From Dehalococcoidia bacterium (GTDB lineage: Bacteria; Chloroflexota; Dehalococcoidia; Lucifugimonadales; UBA3495), in NCBI GenBank assembly GCA_965261355.1, contig OZ253464.1, forward strand, positions 1,561,254 through 1,625,253: a DNA stretch of 64,000 bases. The letters run 5' to 3'. Every line of letters starts with the position of its first letter. The first letter of the stretch is position 1. Position numbers and translations under genes: made by a program. Below are positions 20,576-44,312 of the stretch, one piece after another. The notes under the pieces are model-generated. The model had not been told where the DNA came from, ran no database searches, and saw only the letters and a list, made by a program, of their open reading frames with translations.

Positions 20576-21163
20576 CTAAGCCCCGATCCACCGAAGGGGT
20601 GAGTGTGGCGGCGGGTTGAAGGGGTAAAAAAGTGCTCCCGGCATCGGGGATAATGGTTGTTGTTACGGCAAACCATCCTCGAAGCAGGAGCACCTGATAG
20701 ATGCTACCACCCAGCGAGCCCGACCGCATCCGAATCGCCTTCGACGACCACCGCCTGGTGAGCAATGCCGGGCTGATCCTTCCGGTCACCCTCGCCCAGC
20801 GCCTGGGCTTGGGTGAACTCGTCGGCAATCACGTTGACCTGGGAAATGCGCCGGGGCGGGCGAACACGGGGGACAAGATGCTGACCCTGGTGGCCTCCGC
20901 GCTGGCCGGTGGCGACTGCATTGACGACGCCGATGCGCTGCGTGCGGGGCGGACCTCCTTGGTGCTGGGGTGCACGGTCAAGGCGCCGTCCACCCTAGGC
21001 ACCTTCCTGCGCAGCTTCCGGTGGGGCCATGTCCGCCAGCTGGACCGGGTGAGCCGTGAGCTGCTGGCGCGGGCCTGGGCCACTGGGGCCGGACCCGGTG
21101 ACGGGCCGTTGACCATCGACCTGGACTCCACCATCTGCGAGACCTCCCCACTAACCAACGTCG

Positions 21164-22582
21164 TCACGCGGCAATTGGCGCGTCAGGGGGGGCGTAGGTT
21201 GTGTGTTCCGGAGCATCGGGGATGGGCACCAGCAAATAGCCCAGTTGCGCCGCCCGCCGCTTTGCCGCGCGCAACGCCCGCTGCTGATATCGGCGTTCGT
21301 AGTATTCGGCCCCGGCGTCCACGTACTCTTGACCGTAGCGCAGCATGGAATAGAAGATGCGAGCCAGCTTGTGGGCCGTGGCGGTGATGGCCTTGGGCCC
21401 GCCCATCTGTGCCTTCTTCCGGCGCAGGAAGGCGCCCAGGGCGCTGTCGGAGCGGTGCAGAGCGTTGGCCGCCAGACGTAAGGCCGCCGCCGCACGGTTG
21501 GCGCTGGGCTTGGTCTTGGAGCTCATGACCTTGCCGCCGGTGATGCGGTTGTTCGGGCTCAGCCCCAACCAGGACGCAAAGTGCTTCGCACTCGGCCATT
21601 TCGTCATGTCGGCGCCAATCTCACTCACCACCTTGAGCGCGGTGTAGGCATCCACACCGTCGATCTGGGTCAGGTCAACCCCCGTCATACGGTACAGGTG
21701 CGTCCAAACGTCGAAGCGTGGCGCGTTTCCTTTGCTGCGTCTCCGGCCGGACTTCGCCGCCGGAGGATCACCATTGCTGCGGTCCTCGAAACGCTCCAAC
21801 TGGGCTTCAATCTCCCGGTCGCACTCGGCAATCTTATCCTGATAGAACCGGTACAGCTCCAGGGCTTGGTTCAGCTCGAAGATGTGCTCCTCCCGCCAGT
21901 GCCCCTGCAGCGACTTGGCGATGGTTGCCTCGTCGGCTTTGATCCTGGGATCGCGCAATTGCGCCAGTTGTCGCGGGTCCCGTTGGCCGTCCACGATGGC
22001 CTCGATGATGTCCAGGCCGGTCTTGCCGGTGATATCGCTGATGACGTGGTGGAGCTTCACGTTCATCTGGGTCAGCGCCTTCTGCATATGCTGGATATGC
22101 TGGATATGGTGGGATGCGTACTGCACCAGCATGACCCGCTGCCGCAGGTAGCTGCGTAAGCGTCGGATCTCCCCGTCGGGCCGGAAAGCCCCCGAGAGCA
22201 GGCCGTAGGTGTGCAGCTGCTGCAGCCACTGGCAGTCCAGCACGTCGGTCTTGCGGCCGGGCACGTTCTTGATGCGCCGGGGGTCCACCAGCATCACCTG
22301 GAAGCCCCGTTCTTCCAGCACCCCGAACAGCGGTATCCAGTACACGCCGGTGGACTCCATGACCACGGTCTCCACACCACACTCGGTCAGCCAGTCCGCC
22401 AAACGGTACAGGTCCGCCGTGAAAGCCTCGAACTCTCGCACCGGCTGCTCCGCCCGGTCGGCGGGCACCGCCACATAGTGGCTGGTAGCGCCCACGTCGA
22501 TGCCCGCCGCGTTCAGGTTCAGCTGGGACAGCCCTTCCGGTTTTGCCCCGCTCTGGCGTCTGCTCATCATCGCCTCTGCCAT
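21164..22582 (-). CDS. IS110-family (DEDD) transposase/recombinase
   Basis: AGIDVGATSHYVAVP N-terminal motif and a Transposase_20-like C-terminal part (FASWLGLSPNNRITGGK). Start candidates are 22582, 22570 and 22567. Confidence 0.8.
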   Translation of the reverse strand: MAEAMMSRRQSGAKPEGLSQLNLNAAGIDVGATSHYVAVPADRAEQPVREFEAFTADLYRLADWLTECGVETVVMESTGVYWIPLFGVLEERGFQVMLVDPRRIKNVPGRKTDVLDCQWLQQLHTYGLLSGAFRPDGEIRRLRSYLRQRVMLVQYASHHIQHIQHMQKALTQMNVKLHHVISDITGKTGLDIIEAIVDGQRDPRQLAQLRDPRIKADEATIAKSLQGHWREEHIFELNQALELYRFYQDKIAECDREIEAQLERFEDRSNGDPPAAKSGRRRSKGNAPRFDVWTHLYRMTGVDLTQIDGVDAYTALKVVSEIGADMTKWPSAKHFASWLGLSPNNRITGGKVMSSKTKPSANRAAAALRLAANALHRSDSALGAFLRRKKAQMGGPKAITATAHKLARIFYSMLRYGQEYVDAGAEYYERRYQQRALRAAKRRAAQLGYLLVPIPDAPEHTTYAPPDAPIAA

Positions 22583-22829
22583 TGCCGTGTAGGCGTGTCG
22601 CCGGAGGGAGCCGCGGACTGTAGCCACTCTCCCCAACGGGATCGCCCCGATCGGGGCTTCACCAATGATGCCGTCGTAAGGCTCCCGGACCATGCTACGG
22701 GTCGGGCAATACGCACCAGAGTCTGCTCGGTCTTTGTCCGGACGACACGCCTCGCCATGAGCATACATCCTTGGGCCGACTCACCAGTTAGTCGCCTCTG
22801 CACAGGCCGGACAAGGCCATAATATTGCT
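22583..22829 (-). ncRNA. candidate bridge-type guide RNA in the IS110-a leader
   Basis: The leader contains stem-loops plus 6-7-nt matches to its own junctions (see findings). This is a sequence-only prediction. Confidence 0.35.
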
Positions 22830-42169: not shown

Positions 42170-43132
42170 TCAATAGAAATGAGCGACTTCTGGCTGAGTC
42201 ATATCGCACCACGTGGAGCCGTGTTTGAGCATGGAGTTGAGTATGACCAGCAGTTTGCGCATGCACGCGACGAGCGCCACCTTCTTCGGCTTACCGGCTG
42301 CCAGCAGCTTCTGGTAGAAGTCGCGGATGACCGGGTTGTGGCGGCTGGCTACCATCGCTCCCATATACAAAATGGCTCGTACTCGGGCGCGCCCGCCCCA
42401 GACGGCCCGCTTGCCCCGCAGGGTGCCGCTGTCCCGGTTGAAGGGGGCCACTCCTACCAGGGCAGCAATCTGCCGGCGATCCAGCGTTCCCAGCTCCGGC
42501 AGGTAGGCCAGCAGAGTGAGGGAAACCTGTTCCCCCACGCCGGGAACGGTGCGCAGCAGGTCATCCTTCTCTCGCCACACGGGGCTCCGGCGGAGAGTCT
42601 GCCTCAGCCCCTCGTCCAAGTCGTTCAACTCCTGTTCCAGCCAGGCGATGTGGGCCTCGATGCGGGGGCGAACGGCGCTGATAGCGGTCCCCAGCCGGTT
42701 CTTCTCCGAGACCAGCATGGTCAGCACCTGATGCCTGCGGGCCGCCAGCGAGTTGAGTACCTGCGTCTCGGCGTCTCTGAGAGGACGCACGGAGGGACGA
42801 ACGGCGTCGGCGAAGTGGGCCAGCACTGCCGCATCGAGAGAGTCGGTCTTGGCCAGCGTACCGGTGGCCCTGGCGAAGTCGCGAACCTGGCGCGGGTTGA
42901 CCACCACCACCGGCAGCGCCGCAGCAGCGAGAGCCGCCACCAACGGCACTTCCAGACCGCCCGTTGCCTCCAGCAACACCATGGCGGGACCTATATCCAC
43001 GATCTGGGAAACCAGTTCCCCGACGCCGGTTTCGTTGTAAGACGCGGCCCATCTCTGTCCCGTAGGCCGGACGGCAACATCCACCTGCGCCTTCGAGACA
43101 TCAATGCCTATGTATCTCGGGTTCTCTTCCAT
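42170..43132 (-). CDS. IS110-family (DEDD) transposase/recombinase
   Basis: [16 protein letters not shown] start at 43132 follows AGGAGG. The C-terminal part has [29 protein letters not shown]. Confidence 0.85.
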
Positions 43133-43308
43133 CTGTACCTCCTGCGTCAGCGCTGGCCCGTCCTTGCACGATACGGGCTCGATTGGCCCAGGCAACTGTT
43201 CGGGCTCTGCTTGTAGGGAGCGCGGCGACCCTCGCTACTGGACGGTCTGTCGTGACCAAGGGAATGCCGGTCTGCCGCGCTCGGCTCCATCGCCAAAGTC
43301 AAGATACA
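43133..43308 (-). ncRNA. candidate bridge-type guide RNA in the IS110-b leader
   Basis: A 9-bp closing stem flanks an internal loop whose arms match the left flank+core and the reverse complement of core+right flank. Downstream segments match both element termini (see findings). Confidence 0.45.
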
Positions 43309-44312
43309 AGGGGATGGGCGTCCAGTCCGTCTCGGGTATCGCCTCGATGAGATTGCGCAGGCTCTTGTGTTGGCGAATGGCGATGGAGTAGCGGACATCC
43401 ATCTTGCGGCAGACGGCGACGATGGCATGGGCATAGAACCCGCTGTCGGCCCGCACCGTGAGTTGGCCCCTGGCCCCAGCATGGCGCACCCGCCCCACCG
43501 TTTCACGCAGGAAGTGGGCGCCGCCCCGGGCGGTGTTGGCGCGGCCTTCGCGCAGCCGGGACATCAACACGTCGCCGGTGCCGGCGGCGATAGCCAGCAG
43601 TGGGTGATAGCCCCGCGCACCGGTGTAGCCGTGGTGGCGTGCCCCCTCCTTGGCCAGTCCATAGGTCTCGCAGATGGTCGAATCCAGGTCGATGGTCAGG
43701 GGCGAGTCGCCGGGTCCGGCACCGGCCTTCCAAGCGCGTGCCAGCAACTCGCGGCTCACCCGGTCCAGTTGACGGACGTGGCCCCAACTGAAGCTACGTA
43801 GGAAGGTGCCCAGAGTGGAGGGCGCCTTGACCGTGCCGCCCAGGGTGCGGGCCGTCCCCCCAGTGCGCAACACATCGGCGTCGTCAATGCAGTCGCCGCC
43901 AGCCAGCGCAGACGCAACCAGGGTCATCACCTTGTCGCCCGTGTTCGCCCGGCCCGGCGCATTGCCCAGGTCGAGGCGCTGCTGGACGAGTTTGGGCAGG
44001 CCGAGGCGCAGGGCCAGGGTAGCCGGAAGGATCAGTCCGGCATTGGCCACCAGGCGGGTGTCGTCGAAGGCGATACGGATGCGGTCGGGGTGGTTGCGTG
44101 ATAGCATCCGTTGGGTGCTCCTGCTTTGGGACCGGTTTTCTGTCTCGAAAACCATTATCCCAGAGGCACAGGAGCACTTTCTTGTATCTTGTTAATAACG
44201 GGCTTAAACTGAGCCAAAAATTACGGACTGGAATTGAGCCACCTCGATAGCTGGGGCATCATCGCCGGACACTTGGCGGAGGTGCTTGCAAGGATTGTTA
44301 AGAGGTGGAGAC

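Follow-up and report, generated by a model that had tools for sequence, protein, structure and literature searches.

Background

Among the described elements closest to those reported here are IS621 and ISCro4, which belong to the IS110 group of bridge recombinases (Durrant et al. 2024, PMC11208160; structures 8wt6, 9t56). As covered in PMC11208160, with reference to Partridge & Hall 2003 and Post & Hall 2009, IS4321 and IS5075 target the terminal repeats of Tn21-family transposons, and the IS1111-attC group targets integron attC sites. Half-match recombination has also been described for IS621, in which off-target insertion occurs at sites possessing the core and one guide-matched arm (bioRxiv 10.64898/2026.08.31.748434).

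Here we examine two IS110-family elements, IS110a and IS110b, in a window of 64,000 nucleotides from the genome of a Dehalococcoidia bacterium. While the bridge-RNA mechanism of the IS621 type is already known, the choice of target in the present case is unusual, and falls in an uncommon target class. Our analyses support the view that the predicted guide RNAs of these elements match two fixed codon positions in the IS1380 transposase gene, and that their targeting is RNA-guided and of an IS-on-IS nature, such that one selfish DNA repeatedly knocks out another. Considering together the demonstrated anatomy, site specificity, guide-target and guide-donor complementarity, and natural covariation, the best explanation as a whole is very probably that IS110a and IS110b are bridge recombinases, active or recently active, that are directed by RNA to IS1380 sites, a reading drawn from sequence comparison.

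Structure of the nested elements

The first locus, in which IS110a interrupts IS1380-1, comprises the following features:

20581-23964, plus strand: IS1380-1, host of IS110a, 1700 bp without the insert (ends from comparing 13 copies; inverted-repeat scan; NF033539)
20701-21145, plus strand: IS1380-1 transposase ORF, 5' part, ending ..ICET (Pfam PF13701)
22830-23713, plus strand: IS1380-1 transposase ORF, 3' part, beginning YGLAKEG (NF033539; in silico joining)
21146-22829, minus strand: IS110a, 1684 bp including one copy of the core (junctions against uninterrupted IS1380 copies)
21164-22570, minus strand: IS110a recombinase, 468 aa (PF01548 and PF02371; NF033542 at 273 bits)
22571-22827, minus strand: IS110a left end, candidate bridge RNA (consensus fold of 15 variants; covariation with flanks)

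IS1380-1 carries 15-nt terminal inverted repeats and is bordered by a 5-bp target duplication, CTAAG, at 20576-20580 and 23965-23969. When its frame is read across the insert (20701-21145 joined to 22830-23713), 442 aa are obtained without a stop (..STICET/YGLAKEG..). IS110a itself is without terminal inverted repeats, has a left end of 257 nt and a right end of 18 nt, and is bounded by a CT core on the plus strand (21144-5 and 22828-9), which corresponds to AG on the recombinase strand. Its candidate target guide is ACCCGUAG (22702->22695), its candidate donor guide is UUGGGGAG (22636->22629), and a short segment on the 5' side of loop 1 lies at 22726->22719.

At the second locus, the features are as follows:

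41377-46449, minus strand: IS1380-2, host of IS110b (inverted repeats at 41377 and 46449; 5' end comparison; NF033539)
42155-43310, minus strand: IS110b, 1156 bp including one core (junction comparison; six genome copies)
42170-43132, minus strand: IS110b recombinase, 320 aa (PF01548 and PF02371; NF033542 at 208 bits; alignment to IS621 8wt6)
43133-43308, minus strand: IS110b left end, predicted 176-nt bridge RNA (fold, guides, covariation)

IS1380-2 also holds a second, IS21-like insert of approximately 2.2 kb near 44185-46406, and its frame, read in silico across IS110b, gives an uninterrupted 457 aa (..TPIP/YWMDG..). The core of IS110b is AG at 42153-4 and 43309-10 on the plus strand, which is CT on the strand of both IS1380 and the recombinase at both ends, and the left and right ends measure 176 and 15 nt, respectively. 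Candidate target guides are located at 43267->43259 (left) and 43242->43235 (right), and candidate donor guides at 43199->43192 (left) and 43168->43163 (right).

A preliminary description of this DNA had placed two unrelated IS110-family elements in the transposase ORFs of different IS1380 copies, each inserted at a CT dinucleotide and each inactivating its host. We confirm both inserts at the positions given, and the codon positions proposed (..CET/Y.. in IS1380-1 and ..IP/YW.. in IS1380-2) prove exact when the frames are read in silico across the inserts. Both insertions are indeed at CT, with nothing else duplicated at the junctions, and each transposase frame is split, the insertion being the sole lesion in a frame of 442 or 457 aa that is otherwise uninterrupted. 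The location of IS1380-2 was likewise correct, but with its repeats at 41377 and 46449 the element is larger than had been implied. The two IS110 elements, however, are not unrelated, as their recombinases, though distant, belong to one family (26% identity over 170 aa, E 1e-4).

Family assignment and catalytic residues

Both recombinases contain PF01548 and PF02371, and both exceed the cut-off of 140 bits for NF033542 ('IS110 family RNA-guided transposase'), at 273 bits for IS110a and 208 bits for IS110b. Compared with empty sites, their junctions display CT on both sides and no other duplication, as is characteristic of the IS110 family, while a long left end with the candidate RNA, a short right end, and a lack of long subterminal inverted repeats place them in the IS110 rather than the IS1111 subgroup. 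A two-loop RNA is predicted for both types, with the 5'-side guides partly resolved in the a-type. IS110b matches the IS621 recombinase (8wt6) over its full length (E 1.4e-44) and retains D, E, D, D and Ser at the aligned positions. The alignment of IS110a to IS621 is weak; by eye, its D, E, D..D motifs are kept, with Thr at the catalytic Ser position, where its relatives have Thr in 45 cases versus Ser in 38. For the hosts, each transposase fragment matches the IS1380 model NF033539 at 204 bits, above the cut-off, and the assignment is further consistent with the 15-nt terminal repeats and with perfect 5-bp duplications in 7 of 13 IS1380-1 copies. The sequences also suggest that IS110a and IS110b are active or recently active: the recombinase ORFs are intact (in nearly all copies for IS110a), and several copies are 100% identical.

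Target-site specificity

The preliminary description had set a test beforehand, namely a survey of further copies, with copies at unrelated sites counting against site-specific targeting. We surveyed the whole 4.84-Mb genome, which is metagenome-assembled and repeat-rich, together with related genomes. In the genome itself, 16 of 17 IS110a copies and 4 of 6 IS110b copies occupy the same nucleotide of IS1380 as the copies in the window, and no copy was found at a site sharing no sequence with these IS1380 positions. The three copies outside the IS1380 sites retain the core and one guide-matched half-site; the two of IS110b lie one at a perfect and one at a partial guide match.

The IS1380 hosts of the surveyed copies represent several diverged lineages, and the related genomes show the same pattern. 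In this genome, the IS1380 copies with IS110a or a close variant at its site (site A) span at least four diverged backgrounds, and the genomes G012, G015, G052 and G046 show such occupancy in different IS1380 subtypes. This recurrence bears on whether coincidence, homologous recombination between repeats, or an assembly artefact could have generated the nested pattern. The repeat-rich, metagenome-assembled nature of the genome leaves room for such processes, and mismatched flanking pentamers in 6 of 13 composites (IS1380-1 with IS110a inside) point to recombination between copies. Yet the flanks are unique to each copy, the junctions agree to the base, and these junctions are also present in independently assembled genomes, so that we regard this origin of the nesting as having a negligible probability.

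Site occupancy also tracks the allele of the target. Of IS1380 copies in this genome with the cognate site-A allele, 15 of 16 are occupied, versus 1 of 20 with other alleles, and occupancy in G012 follows the site-A allele likewise. For IS110b, 3 of 7 exact sites are empty, and the unoccupied matches of 13-14 nt to its IS1380-type site in this genome all lie within IS1380. A potential alternative explanation is that these elements insert at many short-motif sites and persist only in dispensable DNA, such that the enrichment at IS1380 reflects purifying selection more than guide specificity. The clear guide of IS110a is indeed just 7-8 nt, approximately 28 other genome sites with a 9-nt match are empty, and copies elsewhere disrupt genes (for a DUF805-like protein and an LRR protein); given these empty sites, the guide match identified to date is insufficient on its own to account for the restriction of IS110a to IS1380. 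However, the insertions hit one exact IS1380 nucleotide and are not scattered over IS1380 or among the many other IS families present; moreover, the guides of IS110b specify approximately 14-16 nt, its long unoccupied matches are confined to IS1380, and occupancy follows the site allele. Consequently, we consider survivorship an improbable account of the enrichment, and favour RNA-guided site choice.

A further question concerns copy number alone, as site-specific targeting is not in dispute. IS110a may have entered IS1380-1 a single time, after which intact IS1380 relatives, providing transposase in trans, multiplied the 3.4-kb composite as a unit, in which case most of the 13 near-identical copies would not represent separate homing events. 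All 13 IS1380-1-type copies carry IS110a, none being empty. Variation amounts to 1 SNP and two indels in the IS110a part and 3 SNPs in the IS1380 right part, which implies that both parts are equally young, and the perfect 5-bp duplications in 7 of the 13 are at different loci. Terminal repeats are near-identical across IS1380 subfamilies, with at least 6 near-identical intact copies as a possible source of transposase. Similarly, in G052 three same-guide copies with identical flanks sit at an IS1380 allele that fits the guide less well, while four IS1380 copies with a better match are empty, which also counts against the guide-based explanation. On the other side, the nucleotide occupied by IS110a and its variants is the same in at least 10 different host contexts, drawn from five genomes, which makes it certain that independent insertion happens repeatedly, and IS110b, with its empty exact sites, shows no composite amplification. 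Comparison of IS110a trees or haplotypes with those of the surrounding IS1380-1 was dropped as a line of evidence, since all four gametes are present between the two segments, which shows gene conversion among copies and renders congruence uninformative. Part of the high IS110a copy number may thus stem from mobilisation of the composite as a unit rather than repeated homing, a scenario to which we assign slightly less than an even chance.

Predicted bridge RNAs and guide covariation

The 5' non-coding end of each element is predicted to fold into a two-loop bridge RNA, segments of which match the IS1380 site and the element's own ends. For IS110b, all four guides can be located in an IS621-like two-arm fold, and the consensus fold contains compensatory pairs. 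Two relatives at 82% identity in the same genome carry other guides, each matching its own, different flanks. Across 14 b-type guide classes, drawn like those of the a-type from relatives in the same genus, guides match their own flanks at 8.8-8.9 of 13 non-core positions versus 4.5 under mismatched pairing, a value reached in 0 of 10,000 permutations.

In IS110a, only the two 8-mers on the 3' sides of the loops are clear: that at 22702-22695 equals the upstream flank plus core, and that at 22636-22629 the right end plus core. Both are altered in step with its own flank and end in IS110a', a relative at 85% identity. Over 17 a-type guide classes, 3.81 of 5 positions match the own flank versus 2.04 (0 of 10,000 permutations). 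For the 5'-side segment of loop 1, one register fits most a-type variants, and is shifted for the IS1380 site. Neither a right-target-type guide 3' of the 8-mer in a-type RNAs nor a guide for the left terminus in the IS110a RNA was found. An Rfam scan of 20400-44400 returned no family at threshold, and the only hit, an sX15 match in the IS110b leader, antisense to the recombinase, was set aside as falling below the gathering score (31.5 versus 55 bits). Folded singly, neither leader is significantly more stable than its shuffled counterparts (z -1.1 and -1.5), so the case for structure draws on the alignment folds and covariation.

RNA-guided targeting had been raised conditionally in the preliminary description, together with parasitism of one IS by another in place of coincidence. 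The former gains support from loop segments of the leader RNAs that match the target and element ends and covary with flanks across natural variants, and the latter from this guide covariation and the copy survey.

Under the mechanism that we propose, the long left end of each element would be transcribed into a structured RNA, one internal loop of which would pair with both target strands around the CT core, and another with the joined ends of the element itself. The target loop of IS110b would specify approximately 14-16 nt, corresponding to the ..IPYW.. codons of IS1380 with one G.U wobble, and the 8-nt guide of IS110a would specify the core and the Tyr-Gly codons of ..TYG... A DEDD/Ser-type recombinase would then exchange strands at the core, with a presumed circular form of the element entering without duplication. 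Since IS1380 is multicopy and dispensable, its sites would be abundant and harmless to the host, and insertions that inactivate the host IS would accumulate there. We infer from this a selective advantage of IS1380 as a target; the 'safe harbour' suggested in the preliminary description is an evolutionary reading of the targeting.

Guide diversity and a possible conflict between mobile elements

More tentatively, programmable IS110 guides may represent a currency of mobile-element conflict in this genus, amounting to multi-level RNA-guided hyperparasitism, a proposal that we consider possible but somewhat doubtful. IS1380 copies differ from one another mainly in the 8 nt read by the guide, and single-position guide variants (C, U or A) have counterparts in synonymous alleles of the Gly codon at the IS1380 site (G, A or T), a pattern suggesting that the host IS escapes and that the invader re-targets. 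Diversifying selection at site A is suggestive only, its window ranking 54th of 1321 in diversity, and the windows at site B are unremarkable. The idea that an escape allele is immune is weakened by the occupied ACGGTC allele in G052. Furthermore, many a-type target guides equal the right end of another a-type element (e.g. IS110a' for IS110a), and such elements insert at the boundary of the matching element, giving rise to chains in which unlike elements stand in tandem, and to arrays of miniature derivatives joined end to end. Among sister variants, the target is either a transposase gene of IS630 or an end of another IS110 element, the latter giving tandem chains. Compared with IS621, the long guides of the a-type RNA lie on the other side of each loop, and Thr is often present at the nucleophile position of a-type recombinases. 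No multi-level RNA-guided hyperparasitism of this sort was found in our literature search.

Comparison with known systems

The elements described here offer a clear-cut example, from nature, of bridge-RNA recombinases directed at coding sequence within other transposable elements, in which a multicopy, dispensable element serves as a landing pad and is silenced by a selfish inserter. A literature search of incomplete coverage recovered no account of IS110 elements aimed at the reading frames of IS1380 or IS630, with novelty consequently unproven. The genus provides a natural reprogramming series of approximately 14 b-type and 17 a-type guide classes with genomic targets, among them cases of G.U wobble, insertion at half-sites and an atypical arrangement of the loops, which may be useful for the specificity rules of bridge recombinases. 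The system also bears on the control of IS load in IS-rich genomes and, as the IS1380 frames are otherwise intact, scarless excision could in principle re-arm IS1380.

IS110b closely resembles IS621 in its recombinase of approximately 320 aa, which aligns over its full length with catalytic residues kept, in its CT core, lack of inverted repeats or duplication, and 176-nt left and 15-nt right ends, and in its predicted RNA of two arms, where loop 1 carries a left target guide of 9 nt on its 5' side and a right one of 7-8 nt on its 3' side, the donor guides being analogous. The natural target differs, being a coding position inside another IS here and a REP element in IS621. IS110a departs further, with a 468-aa recombinase that matches IS621 weakly, Thr in place of the catalytic Ser, and long covarying guides on the 3' sides of both loops that equal the recombinase-sense upstream flank or right end plus AG; this placement implies that the loop sides, or the orientation of the cassette relative to the CT core, are swapped with respect to the description of IS621. 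Copies outside IS1380, and tandem junctions, resemble the half-matches of IS621 in having the core and only one guide-matched arm, although that work was performed in vitro and in E. coli, whereas ours concerns natural insertion sites only.

ISPpu9 and ISPpu10 of Pseudomonas putida, also of the IS110 family, are likewise confined to one multicopy repeat of their genome, but this is an intergenic REP-type sequence and not a transposable element (PMC8450116; bioRxiv 10.64898/2026.03.19.712850). Going by their treatment in PMC11208160, IS4321/IS5075 and the IS1111-attC group are, like IS110a and IS110b, members of the IS110 family that specifically target portions of other mobile elements. They belong, however, to the IS1111 subgroup, with a guide RNA in the right end, subterminal repeats, and targets that are non-coding ends or recombination sites, whereas IS110a and IS110b have the predicted RNA in the left end and target the reading frame of the IS1380 transposase (that of IS630 in a sister variant).

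Nested elements in the window

Repeat and ORF scans of the window reveal two oppositely oriented IS1380-family elements, and a foreign element splits each of them (IS110a in IS1380-1, IS110b in IS1380-2).

Elements of the nested region
20581-23964: IS1380-1, with 15-nt terminal repeats and a 5-bp duplication, interrupted at 21146-22829
32517-34821: IS21 istA/istB pair, in the interval between the two IS1380 copies
41377-46449, minus strand: IS1380-2, interrupted at 42155-43310 and by a second insert
~44185-46406: this second insert (~2.2 kb, IS21-like, boundaries mapped), between terminal repeat and transposase leader

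The insert recombinases (468 aa in IS110a, 320 aa in IS110b) both contain PF01548 and PF02371 and exceed the cut-off of the NCBIfam model 'IS110 family RNA-guided transposase', and both host elements match the IS1380 model. Relative to uninterrupted copies, one CT lies on each side of each insert with nothing more duplicated, and with the inserts skipped the IS1380 frames are continuous through ..ICET|YG.. (site A) and ..IP|YW.. (site B). The nesting, codon positions and junctional CT given in the preliminary description are therefore exact, yet its two "unrelated" IS110 elements have recombinases that are distant relatives of each other.

The interval between the IS1380 copies (24000-41300) is largely an IS graveyard, containing two IS1182/IS5-like DDE transposases, rve fragments and a resolvase-like ORF, and its sole non-IS genes are one transglutaminase-like and one spermidine-synthase-like gene. 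The single CTAG in the left part of IS1380-1 (20995-20998) has been struck in four other IS1380-1::IS110a copies by four different elements, with CTAG duplicated each time (C1:345974-346121, C1:3375295-3375438, C1:1936939-1938500 and C3:18655-20570 of G000, the genome holding the window). Two of these elements are miniature (~145 bp, roughly 34 and 6 copies); the remainder are a 1.56-kb IS (~25 copies) and a 1.9-kb IS (~44 copies).

Copies of both elements in the genome

A BLAST survey of the whole 4.84-Mb genome for further copies, as the preliminary description had proposed, recovered 17 copies of IS110a (97-100% identical) and 6 of IS110b (99-100% identical, one itself interrupted), along with two copies of a relative, IS110a' (85% to IS110a), and two 82% relatives of IS110b. 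Site A is occupied, to the exact nucleotide, by 16/17 IS110a copies, and site B likewise by 4/6 IS110b copies. Of the IS110a hosts, 13 are near-identical IS1380-1 elements and the other three are IS1380 copies that have clearly diverged. The window's site-A allele is filled in 15 of the 16 IS1380 copies of this genome that carry it, the lone empty one being a degenerate remnant; of the 20 copies with other alleles (TT in the core, or a Tyr or Gly codon changed synonymously), one is filled. The exact site-B sequence occurs in seven IS1380 copies (four occupied by IS110b, three empty), and all three empty 13-14-nt matches to site B genome-wide fall within IS1380.

Guide RNAs and their targets

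The 176-nt left end of IS110b folds into two stem/internal-loop/hairpin arms, as a bridge RNA whose loop 1 reads the target and whose loop 2 reads the donor (the element ends).

Guide segments
43267->43259: IS110b loop 1, 5' segment, equal to upstream flank plus CT (the one difference being a G.U wobble against the bottom strand)
43242->43235: IS110b loop 1, 3' segment, reverse complement of CT plus downstream flank
22702->22695, minus strand: IS110a target 8-mer, loop 1, 3' side, equal to upstream flank plus core
22636->22629, minus strand: IS110a donor 8-mer, loop 2, 3' side, equal to right end of element plus core

Loop 2 segments of the IS110b RNA match the element's right and left termini, and we conclude that this is a canonical bridge RNA aimed at IS1380. 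Different guides, each matching its own flanks, are carried by both 82% relatives here and by b-type variants (relatives of IS110b) found in 16 of the 24 genomes sampled from the genus. Across 14 b-type guide classes, own flanks match at 8.8-8.9 of 13 non-core positions versus 4.5 in mismatched pairings, with 0/10,000 permutations reaching the observed guide-flank match. A weak Rfam match to sX15 (43146-43290, plus strand) overlies the IS110b leader antisense to the recombinase, below the gathering score (31.5 bits, E 0.087).

A consensus fold of 15 variants gives the left end of a-type elements (relatives of IS110a) a long closing stem and two arms. The IS110a target 8-mer matches at 7/8 positions here and at 8/8 in the related genome G012. 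Both 8-mers are changed in IS110a': the donor 8-mer corresponds to the right end of IS110a' itself, which is also different, and the target 8-mer matches the right end of IS110a, which both IS110a' copies adjoin. Guides of the 17 a-type classes in the genus agree with their own flanks at 3.81 of 5 positions versus 2.04, a guide-flank match again reached by 0/10,000 permutations. IS110a is thus also guided, through a variant architecture. In most a-type variants ~5 nt of downstream flank pair with the 5' segment of loop 1, and this segment of IS110a pairs at the IS1380 site only in a shifted register; a guide for the IS110a left terminus was sought in the left-end RNA and none was found. One a-type left end (L056, G013:C2:13100-18800) has its donor-guide segment tandemly triplicated.

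With guides that match their IS1380 targets and covary with flanks, and with copies at the same IS1380 nucleotides, the proposal that IS110 elements parasitise other IS by RNA guidance is supported, and we regard the finding itself as real.

The only IS110a copy outside IS1380 (L186, G000:C1:2583900-2587900) disrupts a DUF805-like membrane protein gene at ..LL|YGLA.., where the guide-matched flank is kept and the opposite flank is not. Thirteen nt here are common to the IS1380 site, with Y-G-L-A in identical codons, exceeding what a 7-8-nt guide explains. One non-IS1380 copy of IS110b lies inside an LRR-protein gene, with a full right match and a partial left match; the second (L185, G000:C1:3083500-3091500) has a perfect guide match at ..RIP|YWK... 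The L185 copy is interrupted by a 2.4-kb multicopy IS (~22 matches, one copy at ~32504-34906 of the window) and adjoins a Shedu SduA_C-domain ORF.

Targets across the genus and the origin of composites

G012 contains at least eight IS110a copies (99% identical) at the same site in a different IS1380 subtype, as well as four IS110b copies at site B, and all 12 uninterrupted IS1380 copies retrieved from it are non-cognate alleles. Empty cognate sites occur in G017 (six), G052 (four), and G015, G016 and G046 (one each). Just one a-type left end was detected in G017, and its guide is a different one; G052 and G046 hold IS110a-like variants with guides one position different, some in the matching IS1380 allele. 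Three G052 copies with the IS110a guide sit in an allele that matches more poorly, and four better sites there are empty.

The 13 IS1380-1::IS110a composites of the window's genome could reflect homing that filled every cognate site. They could equally reflect movement of the whole unit: intact IS1380 relatives have almost identical terminal repeats and would supply the transposase. The G052 pattern favours a real contribution from such hitch-hiking. The IS110a and IS1380-1 segments of the composites are equally young, their histories blurred by gene conversion. Whichever origin applies to the composites, the diversity of host contexts establishes that independent insertions have recurred at the same nucleotide.

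In G003 (L045-L050) and G004 (L054), an 80% relative of IS110a whose target guide differs is present in five to six copies within a multicopy gene for an IS630-family transposase, at a single position (..EIVD|SIS..). The IS630 transposase adds a second type of IS reading frame to those targeted in the genus.

Chains and miniature derivatives

IS110a' directly follows IS110a in tandem within diverged IS1380 copies (L188, G000:C1:3051500-3057500; L189, G000:C1:2181000-2187000), and constitutes a third level of nesting. The arrangement is also listed at L036, L035, L037 and L033 in G015. Many a-type variants adjoin the right ends of other a-type elements or lie in miniature left-end/right-end derivatives, and tandem chains in which the guide matches the right end of a further a-type element are present in G015, G021, G046 and G052. 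Arrays with ~93-bp spacing (L041, G021:C1:713200-719400; G046:C1 ~373600-373910 and 3612350-3612720) consist of units whose match to the a-type left end is confined to its first ~60 nt, and miniature left-end/right-end fusions of ~60-90 bp (L034 and L039, G015) are targets for other a-type elements. These arrays and fusions may be non-autonomous derivatives.

Comparison with known systems

The mechanism is the known bridge-RNA (seekRNA) one (PMC11208160, PMC11187229). IS110b shares the guide layout of IS621 (PMC11208160), and its recombinase aligns full-length with that of IS621, retaining the catalytic D, E, D, D and S. In contrast to IS621, the long covarying guides of a-type elements sit on the opposite loop side (3' in both loops), and on the recombinase strand the core is AG, i.e. 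the coding cassette is inverted with respect to the CT-core frame. Moreover, the position of catalytic Ser241 is Thr in IS110a (residue ~344, motif ..RITGGK.., recombinase at 21164-22570, minus strand), and among 80 relatives from many phyla 45 matches have Thr at the equivalent position and 38 have Ser. The pattern in copies outside IS1380 is described in a half-match study of IS621 (bioRxiv 10.64898/2026.08.31.748434). We found no report in the searchable literature of IS110-group elements targeting transposase reading frames or each other's ends, and the wider network of IS-on-IS and IS110-on-IS110 targeting deserves follow-up; members of the IS1111 group are known to target other mobile elements, namely Tn21 ends and attC sites (cited in PMC11208160).
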